From the NCBI RefSeq assembly GCF_000011465.1, contig NC_005072.1, forward strand, positions 960,001 through 992,000: 32,000 nt of DNA, read 5' to 3'. The notes below the pieces were generated by a model. That model was not told where the DNA came from. It worked only from the letters and a program-made list of their open reading frames with translations, and did no database searches. Below, piece after piece: positions 12,906 through 24,734 of this stretch; the first letter of the stretch is position 1; every line of letters starts with the position of its first letter. The DNA comes from Prochlorococcus marinus subsp. pastoris str. CCMP1986 (lineage in GTDB: Bacteria > Cyanobacteriota > Cyanobacteriia > PCC-6307 > Cyanobiaceae). The position numbers and the translations under genes are program-made.

Positions 12906-13154
12906 ATGGATTTTATAATTTCTATTTTTCTAGCTTCTGTTATGTGGGTTCAAGTTCCTCAATGGGAGGCTGATTGGTCAAAGTGTGCAGTAGATGTTCC
13001 TGATACATCATGTCATTGGTATGTCGCTGCACCCGATAATACCTTTGGAGAAGGATTTGATTGGGAAAGTGCCCCTTGGTTTGATGCTAACGGACTTCAA
13101 GATGTAGCAAAAATTGAGAAAGAAAGTGTAGTAGAAAAGCTTCAAAAAAATTAG
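12906..13154 (+). CDS. Hypothetical Trp- and Asp-rich protein with an N-terminal hydrophobic segment
   Basis: 82-aa ORF with no competing frame. Confidence 0.5.
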   Translation: MDFIISIFLASVMWVQVPQWEADWSKCAVDVPDTSCHWYVAAPDNTFGEGFDWESAPWFDANGLQDVAKIEKESVVEKLQKN

Positions 13155-13247
13155 ATAATATTCAATTAATAAATTACATTTTTTAGCAATAAAGTATTCA
13201 TTTCTTTCTAATAATATTTAAGATGAAAATGACTTTTTAATATTTCA

Positions 13248-13394
13248 ATGCGCTTCAAAGTAAGTTTAAAAAAAGACGGCAAAGAGTTTGATGAAGTTGT
13301 GATAGCAAACAACAAGAAAGATGCTATTGAAGTGGCTTTAAAAAACAATCCAGAAGCGGAGGTCCTTAATTCTGATTGGACATTTAAACTTTGA
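13248..13394 (+). CDS. Possible 48-aa soluble microprotein
   Basis: Hand translation gives MRFKVSLKKDGKEFDEVVIANNKKDAIEVALKNNPEAEVLNSDWTFKL*, with a beta-alpha-beta-like alternation. Confidence 0.4.
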   Translation: MRFKVSLKKDGKEFDEVVIANNKKDAIEVALKNNPEAEVLNSDWTFKL

Positions 13395-13402
13395 AAAAAG
13401 TT

Positions 13403-14191
13403 TTAAAATTTATTTCCAATTTTTGGAATTATTAACGAAGCAACGCAAATAACACTTATTGCAGGACCAGGAGATAAGTTAAAAACAATTGAAAGAATAA
13501 AACCCAATAGAGAAATACAAAGTCCAAAGAATGAAGATCTCATCATTGCAATCCTAAGACTTTGTGCTTTATCAAGTCCTAATAAAGTAGGTGTTGAAAG
13601 TAATGCAATTACTAAAATTACTCCAACAGCAGACATTGAACTAACGATAACTAGTGCCGTCGTGAAACTTAGAGCTAGGTTTAACAAAGACACATTTATT
13701 CCACTAGCTGAGGCGCCCTCTGGATCTAATCCGACATATACAACTTTTTCATATCCGAACGTTACTAATAAAATGAATGTTAGAAAAGCAATAATTGTTC
13801 TTAACAAATCGCCAAGGTTTGCGGTTAATAAATCCCCAAATAATACTGCCTCTAAATCAATTCTTATCCCAAGAAGTGGAATTAGTAAAACCCCAAAACC
13901 AAGCATGCCAGCAAGAATTGTATTCATAACTGCTTCATAATTTTCACTTTTTTTATTAGTTAAACTCTCCGCAATAATTGCTCCGACAAGACCACTTATA
14001 ACTCCTCCAATTGAGGGATGAATACCTAGAGCTAGAGCTAGAGCTAGTCCCGGTAAAACACAATGAGAAATTAAATTTACTTGTAATAGTCTTCTATGAG
14101 TAATCAATACTGTTCCCATGGCTGGGCATAATATTCCAGAGAAAATAGTAATTATTAAAGGAATTAACCACCAGTTGTTTAAAAAAGACAT
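13403..14191 (-). CDS. znuB: ABC-3 family metal (zinc) ABC transporter permease
   Basis: 262 aa and polytopic. …VLITHRRLLQVNLISHCVLPGLALALALG… is the ABC-3 (ZnuB/MntB) pattern. It lies in a cluster with zur, znuC and znuA. Confidence 0.85.
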   Translation of the reverse strand: MSFLNNWWLIPLIITIFSGILCPAMGTVLITHRRLLQVNLISHCVLPGLALALALGIHPSIGGVISGLVGAIIAESLTNKKSENYEAVMNTILAGMLGFGVLLIPLLGIRIDLEAVLFGDLLTANLGDLLRTIIAFLTFILLVTFGYEKVVYVGLDPEGASASGINVSLLNLALSFTTALVIVSSMSAVGVILVIALLSTPTLLGLDKAQSLRIAMMRSSFFGLCISLLGFILSIVFNLSPGPAISVICVASLIIPKIGNKF

Positions 14192-14238
14192 TAATCGTAT
14201 GATTCGTTATGATCAAAAAAGCAGGACATTAAAAGATC

Positions 14239-14643
14239 TTGAAAATAATGGTAACCAAGCCCGACATTACCAAAAGACAAGAGCAACTTCTTGAAGAACT
14301 TAAAAAATGTGATGATGAATTGAGTGGTCAAGAATTGCATAGGCTATTGATTATCGAAGGCAAATCCATGGGGTTGACAACAGTTTATAGAAATCTTCAA
14401 ACTCTTATAAAACATGGATTGATTCGATCTAGACATCTTCCAACAGGTGAAGTACTTTACACTCCTGTTGATAGAGATATTCACCATCTGACATGTGTTC
14501 AATGTGGAGAAACCTCCAAAATGGAAGGTTGTCCGGTAAAAGATATTCATAGTCCAAAGAAAAACCCAAAAAAATTTCAACTTTTGTTTCATACACTTGA
14601 ATATTTCGGCCTTTGCCAAAACTGTTATCAAGCTCAGAGTTAA
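14239..14643 (+). CDS. zur: Fur-family metalloregulator, probably the zinc uptake regulator Zur
   Basis: 134 aa with a winged-helix N-terminus (…SGQELHRLL…GLTTVYRNLQTL…). This is followed by HHLTCVQCG and CQNCY CxxC pairs. The ATG at 14248 is a likely alternative to the TTG at 14239. The gene is embedded in the znu cluster. Confidence 0.85.
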   Translation: MKIMVTKPDITKRQEQLLEELKKCDDELSGQELHRLLIIEGKSMGLTTVYRNLQTLIKHGLIRSRHLPTGEVLYTPVDRDIHHLTCVQCGETSKMEGCPVKDIHSPKKNPKKFQLLFHTLEYFGLCQNCYQAQS

Positions 14644-14678
14644 ATTTAAAAATATTTTTAATCACAGATATTATTCTC

Positions 14679-15428
14679 TTATAAAGAACTAATATTGAGA
14701 TCATCCAATTTGCCTTGTATTGAATTGGGAGTTCCGGATGCTAATACTGTTTTATCTAAAACAACAACCTGATCATAACTATTGAGAGATGAGCCCCAAT
14801 CATGACTACTTATAAACAGAGCTAAGCCTGCATCTGCAAGTTTACGGACTATTTTAAGAAAATCGTCTTTTGCGGGAGGATCTAATGCAGCACATGGTTC
14901 ATCTAGCAGAAGAATTCTTGCAGGAGACATTAAAGTTTTAGCCAAAAGTGCTCTTTGTTGTTGTCCGCCTGAAAGAGAATCAAGTCTTCTATTTGCAAGA
15001 TTTGAAATGCCAACTCTTTGCATTGTTGCTTCCAATTCGCAACATTTATTAACCCAAGACTTTGGATTTGCGAGAAGAGCCTTTATTTGGAATGGATTAG
15101 TATTTTTTGATTTTGAATATTTTATTTGACCTAATGAGACTAATTTTTCAACAGTAATCGGAAATTTCCAATTCATTGAGCTTCTTTGTGGCATAAGTGC
15201 AACCTGGGATCTAGTTCTAACTAAACTTTCACCATCAATTGTTATATCTCCAATATCAGGATTATTTTGTCCTTGCAATAATTTCAAAAGAGTTGATTTA
15301 CCAGCTCCATTTGGTCCAACAAGAGCAGTCAATGTTCCTGGTTTTATTTGAACCGAAACCTTATTTAAAGCTGGCTTGCTTTTTTTTGAATAAGAATAAG
15401 TTAAATTATCTGCAATTAAAGTAGCCAT
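14679..15428 (-). CDS. znuC: Metal (zinc) ABC transporter ATP-binding protein
   Basis: 249 aa with Walker A GPNGAGKST, signature LSGGQQQR and Walker B ILLLDEP. Confidence 0.9.
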   Translation of the reverse strand: MATLIADNLTYSYSKKSKPALNKVSVQIKPGTLTALVGPNGAGKSTLLKLLQGQNNPDIGDITIDGESLVRTRSQVALMPQRSSMNWKFPITVEKLVSLGQIKYSKSKNTNPFQIKALLANPKSWVNKCCELEATMQRVGISNLANRRLDSLSGGQQQRALLAKTLMSPARILLLDEPCAALDPPAKDDFLKIVRKLADAGLALFISSHDWGSSLNSYDQVVVLDKTVLASGTPNSIQGKLDDLNISSL

Positions 15429-15528
15429 TAAAGAATATATTTAAGTCAGTTAGACCTTTATTTTATCAATATTAAGGAATCCATACTTATTTCATAACAA
15501 TTAATACCAAATATTGCTATGAATTATG

Positions 15529-15545
15529 AAAATGATTATCATTTT
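15529..15545. promoter_or_regulatory. Fur/Zur box in the divergent znuC-znuA promoter region
   Basis: AAAATGAT-T-ATCATTTT is a perfect 8-1-8 palindrome 22 bp upstream of the znuA ATG. The 19-mer at 15528-15546 matches the classical Fur-box consensus GATAATGATAATCATTATC at 15 of 19 positions by my count. Confidence 0.7.
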
Positions 15546-15566
15546 TAAGTATTTGAAATTTGTTTA

Positions 15567-16988
15567 ATGTCAATTTTTAAAAAAGTAATCTTTAGTAATA
15601 AGAGATCTAATCATTCTGTTATCAAAAACTCTTTATTAGCTGGAACCGTATTATTATCAACAGTTGCTCAAGATGTTTTAGCGAAAGAAAAATCATATGT
15701 AGCTGTAGAGCCACTCACTTGCGATTTAGTAAAATCTATTGCCTTACCTTCTGATGAAGTAACTTGTTTGGTTGATAGAAAACAAGATGTACATGACTTT
15801 AAAATAACTCCAAGACAAGCTCAATTACTTAAAAGTGCGGATAAAGTTTTTACTCTAGGGAAAGAGATGACCCCAAGCATGAAAAATTGGGAGGGTAAGC
15901 CTCAAACAGTTGTAATTGGTGTAAGTGCTATAGATATAGATGATCACTCTGGGCATGATGACCATGCAGAAGGTTCATTTGAATGGGCAGGCAAATTTCA
16001 ACTCTCTAAAGGTTCCTACAAATGGTCATTCGCAAAGGTAGGAGGGGAATATGCAGATCCAGCTATGAAAATGGTGATTCTCGAATCAAATGATATTGAA
16101 TCTTCTGAAAAACTTGCTAAAGAACTATTAGGTTCTAAGAAGTCAATAAATAAAAAAAATAATGGGACTCTTGTAGCTAGTAATAAAGCCTATGTTCTTA
16201 ATTTTGATCAAGGGAAGGAGAGTACAGTATTTAATGTAGAAATTCAAGAAGATGGCCAATATACATTCTTCACTGAACATATGCCTTTTGAGTTTGAAGC
16301 CGAAGAACACTTCTTTAAAGATTTATCTAATAGCGATGTTGAACCAATTGCACAAGTTCCAGATGAAGGCGAGGGAAATCATCACCATGATCACGGAGGA
16401 TTAGATCCACATGTTTGGCATGATCCTCATAACATCAAAAAGATGGGAGAAGTTGTAAGTAAAAGTTTAAAGAAAGATATCTCTGTTTTTAATAGATCTG
16501 ACAGGAAATCAATCAATGCGAGCTTTGCTTCAGTAGATTCAACACTAGAAGAACTTGATAGCTGGATTGTTGCACAGGTCTCAACAATTCCAGAATCCAA
16601 CAGAGTTATTGTATCTAAACATAAAGCAATGGAATATTACGGCAATGCTTTTGGATTTGAGACTATTAGCTTACTAGATTTTATTGGTGACTCATCAAGT
16701 TTAAGACCTGACAATATTCAATCAACGTTGAAGATGCTTGATGAAGAAAATGTTAAGGCAATATTTCCTGAACAAATACCAGCTTCTAAGTTATTAAAAA
16801 ACTTGAGTAGACAAAGTTCAGTTCCTTTAGCTTCTAATCAAATATTTGTTGATGGATTAATGATGACAGGGAATACAGTTTCTGTTGCTGTTCACAATAC
16901 ATGTACCATTGTTAATTCATTAGGTGGAACATGTGATAAGGAAGCAGGCTCCAGCATTGAAGGCAACTGGATTTCTCTACAAAATTAA
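15567..16988 (+). CDS. znuA: Cluster-9 periplasmic metal (zinc)-binding protein with a large insertion in its His-rich loop
   Basis: 473 aa with an N-terminal signal-like segment. The canonical blocks DVHDFKITP, GGLDPHVWHDPHN, VSKHKAMEYYGNAFG and IFPEQ are present. His-rich stretches DDHSGHDDH and GNHHHDHGG flank about 140 extra residues (aa ~125-277). Confidence 0.85.
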   Translation: MSIFKKVIFSNKRSNHSVIKNSLLAGTVLLSTVAQDVLAKEKSYVAVEPLTCDLVKSIALPSDEVTCLVDRKQDVHDFKITPRQAQLLKSADKVFTLGKEMTPSMKNWEGKPQTVVIGVSAIDIDDHSGHDDHAEGSFEWAGKFQLSKGSYKWSFAKVGGEYADPAMKMVILESNDIESSEKLAKELLGSKKSINKKNNGTLVASNKAYVLNFDQGKESTVFNVEIQEDGQYTFFTEHMPFEFEAEEHFFKDLSNSDVEPIAQVPDEGEGNHHHDHGGLDPHVWHDPHNIKKMGEVVSKSLKKDISVFNRSDRKSINASFASVDSTLEELDSWIVAQVSTIPESNRVIVSKHKAMEYYGNAFGFETISLLDFIGDSSSLRPDNIQSTLKMLDEENVKAIFPEQIPASKLLKNLSRQSSVPLASNQIFVDGLMMTGNTVSVAVHNTCTIVNSLGGTCDKEAGSSIEGNWISLQN

Positions 16989-16999
16989 ACTTTTCTATA

Positions 17000-17018
17000 G
17001 ATAACGGTTTTCATTATC
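17000..17018. promoter_or_regulatory. Candidate Fur/Zur box upstream of the COG0523 gene
   Basis: Read on the minus strand this is GATAATGAAAACCGTTATC. It matches the classical Fur-box consensus at 16 of 19 positions by my count. It lies inside the longer inverted repeat TAGATAA-N9-TTATCTA (16998-17020), 57 bp before the ATG at 17075. Confidence 0.5.
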
Positions 17019-17074
17019 TAATAATGTCTAGTATATTGATTGCTAGGCATTATTTTAATTAGATCAATTAATAG

Positions 17075-18433
17075 ATGAGTATCAACGAAAAAGTTCCTGT
17101 TACAATCCTTACTGGATTCTTAGGCTCAGGTAAAACAACTCTTCTTAATAGAATATTAAGTGAAGAGCATGGTAAGAGAATCGCTGTTATTGAGAATGAA
17201 TACGGTGAAGTTGGGATAGATCAAGGTCTTGTAATAAATGCTGATGAAGAAGTATTTGAAATGTCTAATGGTTGCATTTGTTGTACTGTTCGCGGAGATC
17301 TTATTAGAGTCCTTGGTAATTTAATGAAAAGAAGGGATAAATTTGACTACGTTTTAGTTGAAACAACTGGGTTAGCTGACCCTGGTCCTGTTGCTCAAAC
17401 ATTTTTTATGGATGAAGAAATTAGTTCTGAATTCACACTTGATGGAATAGTTACATTAGTTGATGCAGCTCATATTGATCAACAACTTGGGCGTAGTGAT
17501 GAGAGTTCTGAACAAGTGGCATTTGCAGATGTCTTAGTCCTTAATAAAACGGATTTAGTCTCAAATGATGCTCTTGACAACCTTGAATCAAGATTAAGAG
17601 ATATGAATCGAATGACTCGTATTATTCGAGCAGAGAAAGCAGATGTTCCTATTGAGACAGTTTTAAATTTAAGTGCTTTCGATCTTGACCAAATTTTAAA
17701 GCGTAGACCAACTTTCTTAGAACCTGAATATCCTTTTGAATGGTCAGGAGTTTATGAGCTTGAGCCTGGAAAATATGAATTAAAACTTGAAGAAGGGCCT
17801 GATCCTGAAATGTCCTTAGTAGCTTTTGCTAATCAAGGATTTAGTGAAGAAGAATTAAAAGAGAGTGCAGAAGCCTCTGTAAGACTTTATGCAGAAAAAG
17901 CTAAAAACTTAGAATCTGGAAATACTATTCCATATGATGAGCATGTAAGTCTTAAATTGCAAAACAAAGGATCTAAATCTTTTATTTTGGATATTGAAAA
18001 AGCGTCAAAAATTGGATTGTTCACACAACATACTGCTGAAGAATTCAATATGAAAGTGCTAAAAATAGACTCCCAAGATAATGTTAAGGAAATTCCTTTT
18101 AAAACTGAAAGAAACTGGGTCGCAGAACATGAACATGATGATGAAGTTGGATCAATTGCAATAGAGCGTTTTGGAGATGTAGATCCTGAAAAGTTGAATA
18201 CTTGGATGGGAAGACTTCTTTCCGAGAAAGGAGTTGATATATTCAGAACAAAAGGGTTTATTAGTTATTCTGGCAACCCACGCCGAATAGTATTTCAAGG
18301 AGTTCATATGTTATTTACTGCCCAACCAGATAAAGAATGGGGAAATGAACCACGGAGAAATCAACTCGTGTTTATTGGAAGAAATCTAAATGAAAAAGAA
18401 ATGCAAGAGGGATTTGATAAGTGCCTGATATAG
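17075..18433 (+). CDS. COG0523-family (CobW/YjiA/ZigA-like) G3E GTPase, a putative zinc metallochaperone, with an inserted module
   Basis: 452 aa with Walker A GFLGSGKTT, the family metal motif GCICC, and ETTGLADP and NKTD. The CobW_C-like C-terminus reads …IFRTKGFISY…RIVFQGVH…LVFIGRNL. About 135 extra residues (aa ~221-356) separate the two domains and end in EHEHDDE. Confidence 0.9.
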   Translation: MSINEKVPVTILTGFLGSGKTTLLNRILSEEHGKRIAVIENEYGEVGIDQGLVINADEEVFEMSNGCICCTVRGDLIRVLGNLMKRRDKFDYVLVETTGLADPGPVAQTFFMDEEISSEFTLDGIVTLVDAAHIDQQLGRSDESSEQVAFADVLVLNKTDLVSNDALDNLESRLRDMNRMTRIIRAEKADVPIETVLNLSAFDLDQILKRRPTFLEPEYPFEWSGVYELEPGKYELKLEEGPDPEMSLVAFANQGFSEEELKESAEASVRLYAEKAKNLESGNTIPYDEHVSLKLQNKGSKSFILDIEKASKIGLFTQHTAEEFNMKVLKIDSQDNVKEIPFKTERNWVAEHEHDDEVGSIAIERFGDVDPEKLNTWMGRLLSEKGVDIFRTKGFISYSGNPRRIVFQGVHMLFTAQPDKEWGNEPRRNQLVFIGRNLNEKEMQEGFDKCLI

Positions 18434-19494
18434 AACCTTTTAGCCCTAGAGGCATGTTTCATGAAGGTTGGTCTGCTGAAGTTGATGATTATGCAATAGT
18501 TTGTGGTTGGGCTTTAAAAGGGAAACTCTTTATCGTTGGAGACGTAGTTGGAGGGCTTTATGGGTTCGACGGAGATACAGGAAAGCTTATTTGGAAACAA
18601 GATGAAGCCCATTCCGGAGGTCTTCTTGCAATGTCTATCCATCCGAATGGAGAGATTTTTGCAACTTCAGGGCAAGACGGAATAGTTCGAATATTAAATT
18701 GCAATAATGGGGAGGAAATTAAAGCCATTAAACTTGGTAAAGGTTGGGTTGAACATTTAAGTTGGTCAAATGGAGGTTTATATTTAGCCGTAGCTTTTTC
18801 CAAAAAAGTATATGTATTTAATCAAGATGGTAATGAACAATGGGGTTCAGAAGAACATCCGAGTACAGTAAGTGCCATATCGTGGTCGAATAAGAATGAG
18901 TTAGCAACTGCATGCTACGGACGCGTAACTTTCTTTGATATAGCAAACAAAAAGACTAATCAGAAACTTGAATGGCAAGGTTCACTAGTTTCGATGCAGT
19001 TAAGCCCTGATGGAGATATTGTCGCCTGTGGGAGTCAAGATAATTCGGTACATTTCTGGCGTAGATCAACTGGACTTGATGCTGAAATGACAGGTTATCC
19101 TGGAAAGCCTTCTCACCTTTCTTTTGATGATAGTGGCATGCTATTAGCAACTAGTGGTAGCGAAAGAATTACAGTATGGAGTTTTTCAGGAAATGGCCCT
19201 GAAGGAACGATGCCAGGAGAATTATGTCATCATACTGAACCAATTTCTAGCCTAGCTTTTTCTAACAAAGGTTTACTAGTCGCTTCAGGTTCAAGAGATG
19301 GTTCAGTAGTAGCTAGTTTTCTTAAAAACGACGGAAATGGGGATCCTGTAGGAGCTGCTTTTGCTGGAGATTTAGTTGGAGATATTGCTTGGAGACCCGA
19401 TGACTGCGCTTTAGCTGCAGTTAATGCGAAGGGTGTTGTAACCGTTTGGAATTTTAAAGTCCGAACAAGTTCCTCTTCAAAAGGATTCAAGTAA
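18421..19494 (+). CDS. WD40-repeat beta-propeller protein
   Basis: 357 aa with repeated WD-like units (…IFATSGQDGIVRILN…, …IVACGSQDNSVHFW…, …LLATSGSERITVW…, …LVASGSRDGSVV…, …AVNAKGVVTVWN). The GTG start overlaps the COG0523 stop by 13 nt. An alternative ATG lies at 18454. Confidence 0.85.
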   Translation: MPDIEPFSPRGMFHEGWSAEVDDYAIVCGWALKGKLFIVGDVVGGLYGFDGDTGKLIWKQDEAHSGGLLAMSIHPNGEIFATSGQDGIVRILNCNNGEEIKAIKLGKGWVEHLSWSNGGLYLAVAFSKKVYVFNQDGNEQWGSEEHPSTVSAISWSNKNELATACYGRVTFFDIANKKTNQKLEWQGSLVSMQLSPDGDIVACGSQDNSVHFWRRSTGLDAEMTGYPGKPSHLSFDDSGMLLATSGSERITVWSFSGNGPEGTMPGELCHHTEPISSLAFSNKGLLVASGSRDGSVVASFLKNDGNGDPVGAAFAGDLVGDIAWRPDDCALAAVNAKGVVTVWNFKVRTSSSSKGFK

Positions 19495-19510
19495 TTTCTA
19501 GCTTATAGAT

Positions 19511-19684
19511 TTACCAATAATTAGTTTTCAAATGTCTCTCAATACAAATCACTTCGCAATCATTATCAATACCTTTTGGATGAATATCGCAATATGAAAG
19601 ACATTGTAAATATTCATCTACGGGATTATTTTTATTATTATTAATATCATTATTGTGATTATTTTGAATTTTTGAATTAGTCAT
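19511..19684 (-). CDS. Possible 57-aa Asn-rich protein with a twin CX3C motif
   Basis: Hand translation gives MTNSKIQNNHNNDINNNKNNPVDEYLQCLSYCDIHPKGIDNDCEVICIERHLKTNYW*. It converges on the end of the WD40 gene and is below the track cut-off. Confidence 0.4.
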   Translation of the reverse strand: MTNSKIQNNHNNDINNNKNNPVDEYLQCLSYCDIHPKGIDNDCEVICIERHLKTNYW

Positions 19685-20185
19685 AAATAGATTTCCTCAA
19701 TTCATTTAGGGTTAACATAAACGAGAGAGATAAGAAAAGAAATAAGCAAAACTTACTAAAAAAATAAACAAGAAATATATAAAATTTAAAGCTTAAAATA
19801 AACAAATTGATTATTACTATGGGACATTTTGGATTAAAAATCAATGCGTATAAAAACGGATTGTTTTTTTAAAAGTTTTTAATTAATTTGTGATTGTTGA
19901 GTTTTAGGAGGTCTTTCAAAATGATCGATAGCCTGCCTGCAATTTCGGAATAATTCCGAACTAATTTAATTAACTGCTCCAATTATTTTTTATTAATGTC
20001 TGAACTTACTTCTTTCGCATCGTTTAGGTGCCCTACAAGAAAAAGTTCAATTCTAGAGTCTTTGCCCCAGTTAAAAACTATTAGTTTATTAAGGTTATTT
20101 TTAGCTGAAAAATAATTAACAACAAGGATCAATGATTTAGGCTAGTTGTTAATTTTGATAGATAAAATAAGTAAGAAAATAAAAG

Positions 20186-20211
20186 GAGAGCTTTTAAAAG
20201 CTCTCTTTTTT
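20186..20211 (+). terminator. Rho-independent terminator
   Basis: GAGAGC-ttttaaaa-GCTCTC is followed by TTTTTT. No annotated CDS lies immediately upstream, so it may terminate an ncRNA. Confidence 0.6.
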
Positions 20212-20300
20212 ATTTGGGCTAAAAAAACAAACTTTGGCATTATTATATTTTTTTAGCTATCTATTGTAATAAGAAACTTTATTTGGATAGATATAAAATA

Positions 20301-20444
20301 ATGTCAAAAAAACTTAGATTTTTTTCTGATTTATTAGCTAGAGCTGTTAATGAAATCGAATACAAAAATGTTCTTAAAAAATTAAAGAAACAAGATCTTA
20401 TAGCAGATGTAGATGATCAGAGATCACACCATTTTTATTCATAG
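20301..20444 (+). CDS. Possible 47-aa hypothetical protein
   Basis: Hand translation gives MSKKLRFFSDLLARAVNEIEYKNVLKKLKKQDLIADVDDQRSHHFYS*. Confidence 0.3.
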   Translation: MSKKLRFFSDLLARAVNEIEYKNVLKKLKKQDLIADVDDQRSHHFYS

Positions 20445-20572
20445 AGAAGGGGACTAAATTGAACCATTGGTATAAATCTTTTACTTCAAAAAGCTTACTT
20501 TGGCTAAAAGTCTTATTACAAAATAAATTTTTTATATCTTTAATAATAAGAAAAATAATTTTGTTTTAATCC

Positions 20573-20899
20573 ATGAATAATTACTATTGTCCATACTGTA
20601 ATCCCAAATATCAATTTCAAAAAAAATCAACATCTGGAGAATTAATATGTGGGTTATGTGGTGACCCTCTAGTAAAAAAGCCATTGATTAAAATTAATCA
20701 AATAATTGCTATTATTGCCTCCTTATCGCTAGTACTTCCATTGATTTACACGTTTATTATTTTAATTAAAAACCAAATAAATCCTCCTAGTAGAAACTAC
20801 AATGCAATTACAAATTTTATCGAGAAAAATTCAAAAACAAGATTTTATCAACCTCTACAAAGTGATTTAATTAAACAAGAATCATCATCTTCAATTTGA
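20573..20899 (+). CDS. Zinc-ribbon (CxxC…CxxC) protein with a TM helix
   Basis: 108 aa. The N-terminus is YYCPYCNPKYQF…LICGLCGDPL, followed by IIAIIASLSLVLPLIYTFIILI. Confidence 0.55.
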   Translation: MNNYYCPYCNPKYQFQKKSTSGELICGLCGDPLVKKPLIKINQIIAIIASLSLVLPLIYTFIILIKNQINPPSRNYNAITNFIEKNSKTRFYQPLQSDLIKQESSSSI

Positions 20900-21069
20900 T
20901 TTTTATAACTAGAATTATTTAACTCTTTATTCATAATTAATGGTTTAACAGATTCTTTACAATGATTTTTACATCCTCCATTAAATAAATTGTGAGCTTG
21001 TAAAAAGTGAGTATTTGTTAAAAAGATAAACAAGATTAATTTAAAAGTTTGTTTTATTTTGGATTTCAT
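20848..21069 (-). CDS. Possible small secreted four-Cys peptide
   Basis: From the internal Met the sequence starts MKSKIKQTFKLILFIFLTNTHFLQA, a signal-peptide-like segment. It continues HNLFNGGCKNHCKESVKPL…DDDSCLIKSLCRG*. The longer track ORF (to 21120) would overlap the upstream gene. Confidence 0.4.
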   Translation of the reverse strand: MKSKIKQTFKLILFIFLTNTHFLQAHNLFNGGCKNHCKESVKPLIMNKELNNSSYKNQIEDDDSCLIKSLCRG

Positions 21070-21110
21070 TTTTAGTAAATTATTTACCAAGCCTGGATTG
21101 ATATTATCAA

Positions 21111-21347
21111 CTAATTCCAAGGAGTGTTAATCAATCCCCAAATATCAAAAAAGAAAAATAAAATTGCAATAACAACTAAATCCCAGGCCCTTTCCCTAAA
21201 AGCCCAAGGCGCTATAAAAACTTCTCCCAAACCATGAAGTGCAGCTCCAGTAGGTAGATGATCTAAAACAAGCAAACTATGAGAGAGAATAAAAAGTAAA
21301 CTCGCAAAATATCTAAAAAAAACAAATTGCCAATTGCCAGAATTCAT
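21111..21347 (-). CDS. Hypothetical small membrane protein (two or three TM helices)
   Basis: 78-aa ORF with hydrophobic segments FASLLFILSHSLLVL and LVVIAILFFFFDIWGL. Confidence 0.55.
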   Translation of the reverse strand: MNSGNWQFVFFRYFASLLFILSHSLLVLDHLPTGAALHGLGEVFIAPWAFRERAWDLVVIAILFFFFDIWGLINTPWN

Positions 21348-21473
21348 GTTTTTTATATTTTTAAGAAATATAGTTCAATGCATAAAATATTGAAATAGAT
21401 TTAGTTTATGGATATTTCTTTTTGTAGTTTTAAATACTAAATATCGTCCCAAGCTAAAGTAAAAAGTTAATAA

Positions 21474-22919
21474 ATGAAGAGATATATGTTTTCAAATTAT
21501 CGTCCTAAAAATAATTTTGATGAATACTTTAAAGATAATTTAAATTCTGCTAGAGAAATTTTAACCCCCTTATTATCTTCCCTAGATAATATGGGTTTAG
21601 AAGAACTAAACAGAAATCATTCGGCGGCCAAAAAGTTATTACTAAGACATGGAGCAACTTTTAGGCTAAACGACACAGGCTTAAAAGGTACAGAAAGAAT
21701 ATTACCTTTTGACCCTTTACCGAGAATAATAAGTAAGCATGACTGGATAACCTTAGAAGAAGGATTAAAGCAGAGACTTGAGGCAATAGATCTTTTCTTA
21801 GATGATATATATAATTCTCAAAATATAATTAATGATGGAATAATTCCAAGAGAATTAATTGAGAGCTCAGATGGATGGAGGCCTCAAATGTTGGGTTTTA
21901 AGCCTCCATTAAACAAATGGTGTCAAATATCAGGACTTGATTTAATAAGAGATGGTAAAGGTACTTGGCATGTTTTAGAAGACAACTTAAGATGTCCTTC
22001 TGGTGTGGCTTATTTTTTGGAGAATAGATTAGTGATGAAGAATATCTTCCCTAATCTTTTCTCAGGCAGGATAGTTAAACCTATTGATGAATACCCATCA
22101 TTTTTATTAAAGACTCTCCAAGAACTAGCTGTTTGGACTGATACACCAAAAATAGTTTTATTAACACCTGGGATTTTTAATAGTGCATATTTTGAACATA
22201 GTTACTTAGCCCAAGAAATGGGTATTCAATTAGTTCAAGGTCATGATTTAATTTGTAACGATGAATATGTTTACTTAAAGACTACTTCTGGATTAAAAAG
22301 AGTAGATGTAATTTATAGAAGGATTGATGATGATTTTTTAGATCCTGTACATTTTAGAAAAGATTCATATTTAGGTGTTAGTGGTTTACTAGATGTCATG
22401 AAGGCGGGTCATGTTGCTGTTGCGAATGTTCCCGGGACAGGAATAGCAGATGACAAAATGATTTATTCATTTGTTCCTAAAATGATCAAATATTTTCTTG
22501 ATGAAGAACCAATAATAAAAAATGTTGAAACCTATATTTGTTATTACGAAAAGGATAGAGAATATGTCTTAAAGAACCTTCCAAAACTTGTTGTCAAATC
22601 AGTCTCTGAAGCTGGTGGTTATGGAATGTTAATTGGTCCTCAATCAACTTCAACTGAGATAAATGAATTCTCGGATAAAATTAAAAGTAATCCCAGAAAT
22701 TTTATAGCTCAACCTACTCTAGAACTTTCTACGGTTCCATCGTTATGCGATGGTGAACTTTATCCTTGTCACGTTGATTTAAGACCTTACATTTTAAGAG
22801 GAAAGGATTCATGGGTAAGTCCAGGAGGTCTTACTAGAGTTGCTTTAAAAAAAGGTTCATTAGTAGTCAATTCTTCTCAAGGAGGGGGTTGCAAAGATAC
22901 ATGGGTTGTAGGAAATTAG
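21474..22919 (+). CDS. Circularly permuted ATP-grasp type 2 protein (COG2308-like)
   Basis: 481 aa. Blocks such as …ERILPFDPLPRII…, …CPSGVAYFLENR…, …VDVIYRRIDDDFLDP…, …VANVPGTGIADDK… and …FIAQPTLELS… are characteristic of this family. It is the first gene of a three-gene coupled operon. Confidence 0.9.
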   Translation: MKRYMFSNYRPKNNFDEYFKDNLNSAREILTPLLSSLDNMGLEELNRNHSAAKKLLLRHGATFRLNDTGLKGTERILPFDPLPRIISKHDWITLEEGLKQRLEAIDLFLDDIYNSQNIINDGIIPRELIESSDGWRPQMLGFKPPLNKWCQISGLDLIRDGKGTWHVLEDNLRCPSGVAYFLENRLVMKNIFPNLFSGRIVKPIDEYPSFLLKTLQELAVWTDTPKIVLLTPGIFNSAYFEHSYLAQEMGIQLVQGHDLICNDEYVYLKTTSGLKRVDVIYRRIDDDFLDPVHFRKDSYLGVSGLLDVMKAGHVAVANVPGTGIADDKMIYSFVPKMIKYFLDEEPIIKNVETYICYYEKDREYVLKNLPKLVVKSVSEAGGYGMLIGPQSTSTEINEFSDKIKSNPRNFIAQPTLELSTVPSLCDGELYPCHVDLRPYILRGKDSWVSPGGLTRVALKKGSLVVNSSQGGGCKDTWVVGN

Positions 22920-22920
22920 A

Positions 22921-23877
22921 ATGCTTTTAAGTCGAGTAGCTGAATCTCTTTATTGGATTAATCGTTATTTAGAACGTGCGGAAAATATATCTCGTTTCGT
23001 GGAGGTTAGTGAAGCAATGTCTTTAGATTGTCCACCAGGCAGTGCTGAACCATGGCTGCCTTTAATTGATGCTTCAAGTGATAGAGAAACATTTGATTCT
23101 AGATTTCCTGAAAAAAAACAGGATGATGTTATTAATTTTTTAATAAGGGATCGAATAAATCCCAACAGCATAATCTCCTGTATCCAATTGGCTAGAGAAA
23201 ACGCTAGGCAAATAAGGGATGTAATGACATCTGAAATGTGGGAACAAATAAATATTTTATATTGGAATCTACAAGAAGGGGAATCTATATGGGACCTTCC
23301 AAGGCAGGAGCAATTAAGCGAAATAAGAAGAGGATGTCAGTTGTTTTATGGCATTACAGACGCCACTCTTAGCAAAGATCTTGCATGTCAATTTAGTATT
23401 TTAGGTAGATTAATAGAAAGAGCTGATAAGACATCGAGAATCCTAGATGTAAAATATTACTTATTACTTCCAAGCCTAGATGAGCTTGGTGGAGTCTTGG
23501 ATGAGTTGCAGTGGATTGCTCTTCTTCGTTCGGCAGGTGCTTATCAAATGTTCAGGAAAGCAGAACAAAATTCTATCCAGCCAAATTCAGTAGCACGATT
23601 TCTCTTACTAGATAATAATTTCCCAAGATCTGTTAGATACTGTTTGGATGGTATAAGTAATACCCTAAAAATGATTGATACCTCTCCAAGTTCAGATAAT
23701 CCCTCAAAACTTGAGTGCATGAGGGGTTTACTTAAAGCAAAGTGGAGTTATATCAGAATTGAAGATATAATTAATGACGGACTGCATGAGGCTATTGATT
23801 CCCTACAAATTGATTTAAACAAACTGCATAATCTCATAGAAGATAAATATTTTATAAATAAAGAATTTGATCAATGA
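22921..23877 (+). CDS. Alpha-E domain protein (COG2307-like)
   Basis: 318 aa. The N-terminus MLLSRVAESLYWINRYLERAENISRF is the hallmark of the alpha-E domain. The gene starts 1 nt after the ATP-grasp stop. Confidence 0.9.
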   Translation: MLLSRVAESLYWINRYLERAENISRFVEVSEAMSLDCPPGSAEPWLPLIDASSDRETFDSRFPEKKQDDVINFLIRDRINPNSIISCIQLARENARQIRDVMTSEMWEQINILYWNLQEGESIWDLPRQEQLSEIRRGCQLFYGITDATLSKDLACQFSILGRLIERADKTSRILDVKYYLLLPSLDELGGVLDELQWIALLRSAGAYQMFRKAEQNSIQPNSVARFLLLDNNFPRSVRYCLDGISNTLKMIDTSPSSDNPSKLECMRGLLKAKWSYIRIEDIINDGLHEAIDSLQIDLNKLHNLIEDKYFINKEFDQ

Positions 23878-24734
23878 AAATTAAATATATCCATAACCTT
23901 GAATATTCCTATGAAGAATCAGTTCAATTGGGGGAACATCGATTATGTATCAAGCCCAGATCTCATGGATTTCAAAGGCTAATCAACTTTAATTTAAATA
24001 TTTCTCCAAATCCTAAAATTCTTTATCCTTTACTTGCCGCCAGTGGTGAAGAGATTAATAGAATTACCTTTGAGGGATATACCGATTCATTATCTATTAA
24101 AGCAATAAGCGAGGTTGAGACACTTAAACATCCTTGCATTCTTGATGGTGTAAAAGAAAGGGACCTTACATTACCCTTTTGTAGAAGTATCATTAATAGA
24201 GATCTTCAGGGAGCTTTGGAAGGATGGATGCCAAATGGGCAGCATGATCCTTCTGCTATTGAATTAGCGCAAGAGTCATTAGCAGGAAGTAGCAATAATG
24301 CCTTATCTTTCACATTTCAACTTATAGAAATTATTCAGGATCGAGTTAAGTATACGAAAAGGCATACTGGCCCAGCATGGCCAGCAAGCAGGACTCTTAG
24401 AGAAAGGGTTGGGTCATGCAGAGACTTAGCAATGTTAATGGTTGAGTCATGCAGGTCAGTCGGAATTCCAAGCAGATTTGTTAGTGGTTATCATTTTGAA
24501 GATCCTTTACCAAAAGAATTTGAATTACATGCATGGGCTGAATTATATATCCCAGGAGCAGGATGGAGAGGGTTTGATCCAAGCGGTAAAGGATTAATAG
24601 ACGAAAGGTATTTAACATTAGTATCTTCTTCAAAATCGAACCTAACAGCAGTGATTACTGGAAACTTTAGAGGCAAAACAAACCTTAAGAATAATTTGAC
24701 ATGGGAAATAAAGCCTTTAGAAATCTGTTATTAA
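23874..24734 (+). CDS. Transglutaminase-like cysteine-protease-fold protein with a Bact_transglu_N-type N-terminus
   Basis: 286 aa. The catalytic-triad context is GSCRDLAMLMV (Cys), HAWAELY (His) and GFDPS (Asp). An ATGA start/stop overlap links it to the alpha-E gene. Confidence 0.9.
   Translation: MKIKYIHNLEYSYEESVQLGEHRLCIKPRSHGFQRLINFNLNISPNPKILYPLLAASGEEINRITFEGYTDSLSIKAISEVETLKHPCILDGVKERDLTLPFCRSIINRDLQGALEGWMPNGQHDPSAIELAQESLAGSSNNALSFTFQLIEIIQDRVKYTKRHTGPAWPASRTLRERVGSCRDLAMLMVESCRSVGIPSRFVSGYHFEDPLPKEFELHAWAELYIPGAGWRGFDPSGKGLIDERYLTLVSSSKSNLTAVITGNFRGKTNLKNNLTWEIKPLEICY

Follow-up and report, generated by a model that had tools for sequence, protein, structure and literature searches.

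The window analysed here is a 32,000-nucleotide (nt) stretch of the genome of Prochlorococcus marinus subsp. pastoris, strain CCMP1986 (NC_005072.1, positions 960,001–992,000), and all coordinates count from its first letter. It holds a high-light-adapted (HL) Prochlorococcus locus whose nearest counterparts show 98% protein identity. The subject of this study is a pair of + strand genes. The first encodes a 452-amino-acid (aa) COG0523 (subfamily 5 type) G3E GTPase (17075–18433; Pfam cobW and CobW_C), and the second, which starts with GTG, encodes a 357-aa WD40 protein (18421–19494) that is predicted from Pfam WD40 matches, an AlphaFold2 (AF2) model and Foldseek to be an eight-bladed cytosolic β-propeller. 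An earlier interpretation made from the letters of the window (the sequence-only reading) had seen in the WD40 protein a dedicated client or adaptor of the GTPase under zinc limitation.

The pair belongs to a zinc-uptake cluster of six genes in the order znuB-zur-znuC<>znuA-COG0523-WD40. The cluster comprises a znuB-like ABC-3 permease gene (13403–14191, - strand; Pfam ABC-3, E = 5.8e-43), a Fur-family regulator gene that is the candidate zur (14239–14643, + strand; Pfam FUR, E = 1.8e-18), a znuC-like ABC ATPase gene (14679–15428, - strand; Pfam ABC_tran, E = 3.2e-31) and a znuA-like periplasmic binding protein gene (15567–16988, + strand; Pfam ZnuA, E = 7.2e-43). The Pfam match of ZnuA is split by an insert: the protein carries a His-rich loop and an insert domain of ~140 aa at residues ~130–275 (15954–16391). 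The location of zur within clusters of this type was described previously (Barnett et al., 2012, PMC3323870). An Rfam scan of 13000–21500 returned no RNA family.

Overlap and conservation of the gene pair

The COG0523 gene ends with GAT AAG TGC CTG ATA TAG, and the GTG of the WD40 gene sits inside AAG TGC. As the sequence-only reading had described, the WD40 open reading frame (ORF) overlaps the COG0523 stop by exactly 13 nt (GTGCCTGATATAG, 18421–18433, + strand), a segment that contains the start codon of one gene and the stop codon of the other. Four lines of support from sequence comparison indicate that the GTG at 18421 is the real start. First, a TAA at 18418–18420 directly precedes it in the WD40 frame, and the ORF therefore cannot be extended upstream. 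Second, a sister clade of ~85% identity has ATG in place of GTG, and this A/G difference is a synonymous change of a Lys codon in the COG0523 frame. Third, substitutions in WD40 codons 2–11 fall mostly at third positions of the WD40 frame. Fourth, reading of the sequence shows a Shine–Dalgarno (SD)-like GAGG at 18407–18410 (+ strand), within the COG0523 coding sequence and 10 nt before the WD40 start, and purine-rich counterparts occupy the same place in other phyla. An alternative start at ATG 18454 (Met12) was rejected, because codons 2–11 evolve as coding sequence and ATG or GTG is conserved at 18421. Given a WD40 start that is placed behind GAGG and precedes the COG0523 stop by 13 nt, ribosomes that finish COG0523 would probably re-initiate on WD40, and the two proteins would then be made in roughly matched amounts.

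The arrangement was compared across Prochlorococcus and other bacteria. Among the Prochlorococcus loci with enough upstream sequence to be informative (n = 79), all 79 have the order znuB-zur-znuC<>znuA-COG0523-WD40 together with the 13-nt overlap. Eleven loci were inspected from eight other lineages, which include Synechococcus, Proteobacteria, Gemmatimonadota, Myxococcota and Holophagales, and in each of the 11 the WD40 start lies 13 nt before the COG0523 stop. The intergenic space is thus zero, the WD40 start being upstream of the COG0523 stop, and the overlap is kept in 90/90 informative loci. The COG0523 partner, in the Prochlorococcus loci as in the other 11, is an insert-bearing protein of 445–461 aa. 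Orthologues of the WD40 protein at 57–60% identity were found in Synechococcus, a Proteobacteria metagenome-assembled genome and Gemmatimonadota, and more distant members, represented by a profile, extend the family to Myxococcota, Holophagales and Gammaproteobacteria. An exhaustive representative search gave ~70 clusters of single-domain WD40 proteins of 325–370 aa that align over their full length at ~30–55% identity. Both proteins have shared terminal signatures, which are F(D/E)xCL(I/V/G)* at the C-terminal end of the GTPase and (M/V)(S/P)xL...P(Q/R)G.L(R/H)xGW at the terminus of the WD40 protein.

The importer beside the pair differs by locus (ZnuABC, CbiM with an ABC ATPase, or TonB-dependent receptors with PepSY_TM), and the COG0523-WD40 pair is therefore the constant unit. 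Synteny thus extends well beyond the picocyanobacteria, for which its conservation had been proposed as a check, and these comparisons indicate that the pairing is conserved across bacterial phyla far beyond chance. That the COG0523 and WD40 proteins work together is highly probable.

The genomic association itself is already known, having been published in 2009. Haas et al. (2009, PMC2770081) reported that prokaryotic COG0523 subfamily 5 genes cluster with WD40-repeat genes and znuABC. Their Additional file 5 gives P. marinus MED4 PMM1031-1033 as "znuC<>znuA-COG0523-5-WD40", and they list operons of the form "COG0523-5-WD40" for Nostoc and Cyanothece and of the form "znuCBA-COG0523-5-WD40(-sapB)" for Bradyrhizobium, Nitrobacter and Rhodopseudomonas. 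The subfamily 5 assignment used here is the published label of the MED4 orthologue PMM1033. For their branch 1a, Barnett et al. (2012, PMC3323870) described the co-localisation of COG0523 and WD-40 genes as strongly conserved and the role of the WD-40 protein as unclear, and they noted an insert of ~150 aa in these GTPases. The gene pair in the window does not differ in kind from the published module: the WD40 gene is immediately 3' of a cobW + CobW_C GTPase gene with a CxCC motif. The sequence-only reading was therefore mistaken in calling WD40 proteins uncommon partners of zinc genes, as they are a published hallmark neighbour of COG0523 subfamily 5. No later functional study of the WD40 partner was found in the searched literature.

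Zur boxes and the metal served by the pair

A position weight matrix (PWM) for Zur sites was built from 10 published cyanobacterial sites with the MED4 site left out against circularity, and its training sites score 22.6–28.5 bits. A strong box in the znuC<>znuA spacer (15523–15545) scores 24.6 bits, inside the training range, and its reverse complement agrees letter for letter with the Zur site that Haas et al. (2009, PMC2770081) published for MED4, AAAATGATAATCATTtTCATaaT. The box overlaps a promoter-like element, TTGCTA-17-TATCAT, at 15514–15542. On this sequence evidence a Zur box is present in the promoter region of the znuA-COG0523-WD40 unit, and Zur bound there would be expected to repress the unit.

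A second, weak Fur/Zur-like box lies at 16995–17018 in the 86-nt spacer between znuA and COG0523, 57–80 nt upstream of the COG0523 start. It includes a Fur-type element, GATAACGGTTTTCATTATC, at 17000–17018 with a 16/19 match to the Fur consensus (3 mismatches). Its best PWM score, at 16995–17017, is 12.0 bits, which is below that of every training site. Distinct sites with scores of at least 12.0 bits number 4 in the window, compared with 0.65 expected per shuffled window. Three HL clades whose spacers have diverged elsewhere retain the core of the weak box (AAYGGTTTTCATT), and the box overlaps the -35 of a promoter-like TTTTCA-18-TATATT at 17008–17037. It may constitute a second control point. 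The sequence-only reading had regarded both genes as probably under the candidate box at 17000–17018; the element does exist, but the main Zur box is the one at 15523–15545. Other PWM matches were found at 24475–24497 (+ strand, 14.4 bits), inside a transglutaminase-like gene, and at 20875–20897 (- strand, 12.3 bits), at the end of a 108-aa ORF (20573–20899), and these are probably chance matches.

Apart from the element in the 86-nt spacer, no + strand promoter-like or terminator-like site was found from znuA to the end of WD40. The view that there is no promoter space between COG0523 and WD40 is consistent with this result and with the overlap. Promoter-like matches in this AT-rich region are no commoner than in shuffled sequences. 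The best-supported interpretation of these sequence features is one Zur-controlled unit, znuA-COG0523-WD40, that would be co-transcribed from the znuA promoter (PznuA), with possible secondary control in the 86-nt spacer.

A zinc response of the pair, as proposed by the sequence-only reading, receives mixed support from relatives. Experimental work showed that Anabaena all1751, a COG0523 gene of a related cluster, belongs to the Zur regulon and that Caulobacter CC0320-CC0321, also a related cluster, is repressed by zinc and Zur. The orthologous COG0523 gene of Synechococcus WH8102 (SYNW2482), on the other hand, adjoins a znuABC copy that responds to neither zinc nor Zur. The searched literature yielded no expression data for Prochlorococcus, PMM1033/PMM1034 included, or for SYNW2482/2483. 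Judging from the genomic context, the metal served in this genome is most likely zinc.

It is possible, though unlikely, that the pair serves another metal such as cobalt or nickel, or a general low-metal response, and that the zinc label merely follows the annotation of the neighbours. Prochlorococcus has an absolute cobalt requirement. In some lineages the pair stands beside Co/Ni importers, namely CbiM in Myxococcota and Holophagales loci and HoxN/NixA-type transporters (Haas et al., 2009, PMC2770081), and the cobalt question was raised for these clusters by Barnett et al. (2012, PMC3323870). The absence of zinc and Zur regulation in the WH8102 copy points the same way. Against this alternative, the pair in the window lies within a cluster of ZnuABC and a Fur-family regulator that has a full-strength match to the cyanobacterial Zur motif, and the related Anabaena and Caulobacter operons do respond to zinc and Zur. 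Service of another metal is compatible with a model in which the WD40 protein acts as partner and as adaptor or regulator of the GTPase.

The WD40 propeller and the GTPase

The WD40 protein matches PF00400 in three stretches at 89.6 bits (cutoff 27) and many other propeller families of Pfam, and its sequence matches in the PDB are WD40 proteins. The AF2 model, computed with 26 orthologues, has a predicted local distance difference test (pLDDT) score of 91.7 and 32 blade strands, and therefore eight blades. Foldseek aligned it with eight-bladed Notchless/Rsa4, ODA16/DAW1, TBLR1 and the designed protein Tako8 at template modelling (TM) scores of 0.83–0.85. The protein is thus modelled as a closed propeller of eight four-stranded blades and is predicted to be cytosolic. 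No signal peptide was detected, and the N-terminus (MPDIEPFSPRGMFHEGWSAEVDDY) is devoid of a hydrophobic signal segment.

The B–C turns are located on the top face. Among 70 cluster representatives, 46% of the B–C-turn positions are at least 85% conserved, compared with 0–9% in strands A, C and D; positions were mapped to the top face by the DSSP strand order of the model, not by coordinates. The family-specific conserved residues are W109, Y166, Q206, H211, D220, M223, Y226, K229 and a GPxGxxP loop at 259–265. A conserved His/Cys ligand cluster was found neither among the close orthologues nor among the 70 cluster representatives, and the suggested search for metal-ligand clusters on the top face accordingly gave a negative answer. 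In the model, the top face resembles a surface for binding proteins or peptides rather than a metal site.

These features bear on the alternative that the propeller itself binds metal, either as a cytosolic zinc chaperone or store resembling AztD or as a metalloprotein client that is loaded by COG0523. AztD is an eight-bladed propeller. This periplasmic Paracoccus protein is evidence that zinc can be carried and passed on by a propeller, and ZnuA, Fur and CobW genes are frequent neighbours of aztD (PMC6689063), a neighbourhood that is also seen here. The WD40 family moreover conserves H64, H211, H271, D86 and D207. However, H64, H271, D86 and D207 occupy canonical WD40 structural tetrad positions and H211 is inside strand C. 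C203, the only invariant Cys among the close orthologues, is in strand B and less than 85% conserved across the family, and no clustered His/Cys/Asp motif is conserved. AztD is exported, is not composed of WD40 repeats and binds zinc at conserved sites, whereas the present protein is a canonical WD40 protein with neither a signal peptide nor a conserved ligand cluster. The best 50 fold matches and the best 60 sequence matches do not include AztD and are all canonical WD40 proteins, and NCBIfam gave only a sub-threshold match to BamB. A metal-binding role of the propeller is thus quite unlikely, and an AztD-like zinc-binding propeller was rejected on the basis of the missing signal peptide, the canonical WD40 repeats, the absence of AztD from the best matches and the lack of a ligand cluster.

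The Pfam matches of the COG0523 protein are cobW (206.7 bits) and CobW_C (86.2 bits), and its CxCC motif is GCICC (residues 66–70). In NCBIfam it falls below the cutoffs for YjiA, CobW and ZigA and has no equivalog; the nearest solved structure is YjiA. Its identity is 74–79% to orthologues of low-light (LL) Prochlorococcus and Synechococcus and 76% over the full length to that of a presumably non-cyanobacterial 4.17-Mb genome (P0495). Residues 8–160 (17075–17560) are nearly invariant among 26 aligned orthologues from HL and LL Prochlorococcus, Synechococcus and P0495. In a family that has been described as segmentally variable, so constant a GTPase domain is unusual, and the level of constraint in the alignment is as would be expected of a protein with extensive obligatory contacts.

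The GTPase contains a β-rich insert domain at residues ~215–355 (17717–18139, + strand), ending in AEHEHDD. Although the AF2 model of the whole protein is poor (pLDDT of 57.5), residues 221–348 have pLDDT values of 76–93 in it and form a β-rich domain with one long helix. A fold search with this model was dominated by matches to YjiA and other GTPases, and neither the fold search nor profile searches against the PDB and Pfam identified a relative of the insert. The insert is homologous to that of the neighbouring ZnuA (BLASTP, 26% identity over 175 columns, E = 6e-8; hhalign, probability of 96.9%, E = 2e-10). Common to both are the motifs FEW-G, DP-M and F(T)x-H-..-EF, in each case with a His-rich stretch after them. 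A mention of this relationship was not found in Barnett et al. (2012, PMC3323870). From its sequence, the insert is more likely to be a metal-handling module than purely a WD40-docking element. Its recent in-place duplication from COG0523 into znuA is not supported, as the ZnuA copy is no closer to its own COG0523 insert than to others.

The ZnuA loop is modular among HL Prochlorococcus: it contains low-complexity DHDDH-type His/Asp repeats of differing length alone, such repeats together with a single copy of the insert domain, or two copies of the domain in tandem. Among the loci numbered L001–L080, ZnuA is 358–365 aa long in L027 and L048, 473–476 aa in the window and L075, and 611–613 aa in L003, L004 and L057. 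The copy number in this metal-binding loop thus varies at strain level. ZnuA proteins beside the pair outside the cyanobacteria have no insert domain.

Proposed role of the WD40 partner

We lean, with moderate confidence, towards the interpretation that the WD40 protein is an obligate partner of the subfamily-5-type COG0523 metallochaperone GTPase and serves as its adaptor or regulator. The conserved top face (W109, Y166, Q206, Y226 and K229) would bind the near-invariant GTPase or a client protein. The propeller would thereby either receive clients or regulate the GTPase cycle, and would not itself be a metal site. Since the importer beside the pair changes between lineages, docking of the propeller to a particular transporter appears less likely than binding to the GTPase or to a cytosolic client. 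The dedicated client or adaptor of the sequence-only reading thus survives in part: a dedicated partnership fits the wide conservation, and the adaptor idea is plausible, while a metal-requiring client is not favoured because there is no conserved His/Cys cluster.

Several points weigh against this interpretation. Neither this analysis nor the searched literature contains direct evidence that COG0523 and WD40 proteins bind each other. The top face was located by strand order, the spacer box is weak, and promoter-like matches are as common in shuffled sequences. Zinc specificity, in particular, is called into question by the CbiM and HoxN-type importers beside the pair in some lineages and by the unregulated znuABC copy of WH8102.

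The WD40 gene might also be functionally unrelated to COG0523 and merely hitch-hike in the operon, with the overlap being a by-product of genome compaction in Prochlorococcus. Overlapping gene ends are indeed common in streamlined genomes. We nevertheless regard this as very improbable, given that the identical 13-nt overlap occurs in genomes of 4–5 Mb from at least five phyla despite changing flanking genes, and that a WD40 family member was found with a COG0523 partner in 11/11 non-Prochlorococcus contexts. Scarcely credible is programmed -1 ribosomal frameshifting in the overlap to give a COG0523-WD40 fusion, which was rejected: the WD40 frame is indeed -1 relative to COG0523, but the overlap has no slippery heptamer, all lineages keep the ATG/GTG start and an SD-like purine run at the same position, the WD40 frame of Prochlorococcus has TAA immediately before the start codon, and no protein of ~800 aa was found among the single-domain family members in the best 150 representatives.

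To the published module, the present analysis adds the invariant 13-nt overlap across phyla and a second weak box upstream of COG0523. It also adds an eight-blade model with a conserved top face that has no ligand cluster, and the homology of the COG0523 and ZnuA inserts. With the association published in 2009 and 2012, the value of these additions lies in a sharper and directly testable hypothesis, not in a discovery.

The eukaryotic zinc chaperone ZNG1 (CBWD) has its bacterial relative in COG0523 subfamily 5. ZNG1 recognises its client METAP1 via an N-terminal peptide motif. The two systems share the logic that a GTPase depends on some element for protein recognition in order to reach its client. 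Unlike ZNG1, the GTPase of the window begins directly at the G1 strand of the GTPase core (MSINEKVPVTILTG...) with no N-terminal extension; what it has instead is an insert within the protein and a WD40 partner encoded by its own gene. Haas et al. (2009, PMC2770081) assigned most eukaryotic COG0523 proteins, the human ones included, to this subfamily. The obvious candidate for a missing subunit that confers specificity or regulation is a propeller encoded with an identical overlap across phyla. In Gα/Gβ, UreG–UreF/H and HypB–HypA, a dedicated non-enzymatic partner likewise governs the GTPase cycle or its targeting, and in the case of Gβ this partner is a WD40 propeller that binds via its top face. 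The likeness is by analogy only, as COG0523 is a SIMIBI-class GTPase and unrelated to Gα.

A bolder proposal, which we put forward tentatively and consider rather doubtful, is that the pair is an ancient obligate two-subunit metallochaperone. The top face would gate the GTPase cycle or select clients, in a Gα/Gβ-like manner within the SIMIBI class, and the insert of ~135 aa would be a previously unnamed portable metal-handling domain that is also present in 0, 1 or 2 copies in the ZnuA loop. If this holds, a single pathway of uptake and delivery would use the same insert module on either side of the membrane. The waters in which Prochlorococcus lives are extremely poor in zinc and cobalt, and the cluster therefore probably bears on the trace-metal economy of the ocean's most abundant phototroph.

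Two further features lie downstream of the cluster. A 57-aa ORF (19511–19684, - strand) is convergent to the WD40 gene, and the stop codons of the two are 16 nt apart; its length is below the limit of the default ORF list. It contains a twin Cx3C motif (QCLSYCDIHPKGIDNDCEVIC) and is kept at the same place in 78/80 Prochlorococcus loci, with a highly conserved C-terminal half. The second is a gene set at 21474–24734 (+ strand) that encodes a circularly permuted ATP-grasp protein, an Alpha-E domain protein and a transglutaminase-like protein, and this trio adjoins the zinc cluster in most Prochlorococcus loci.

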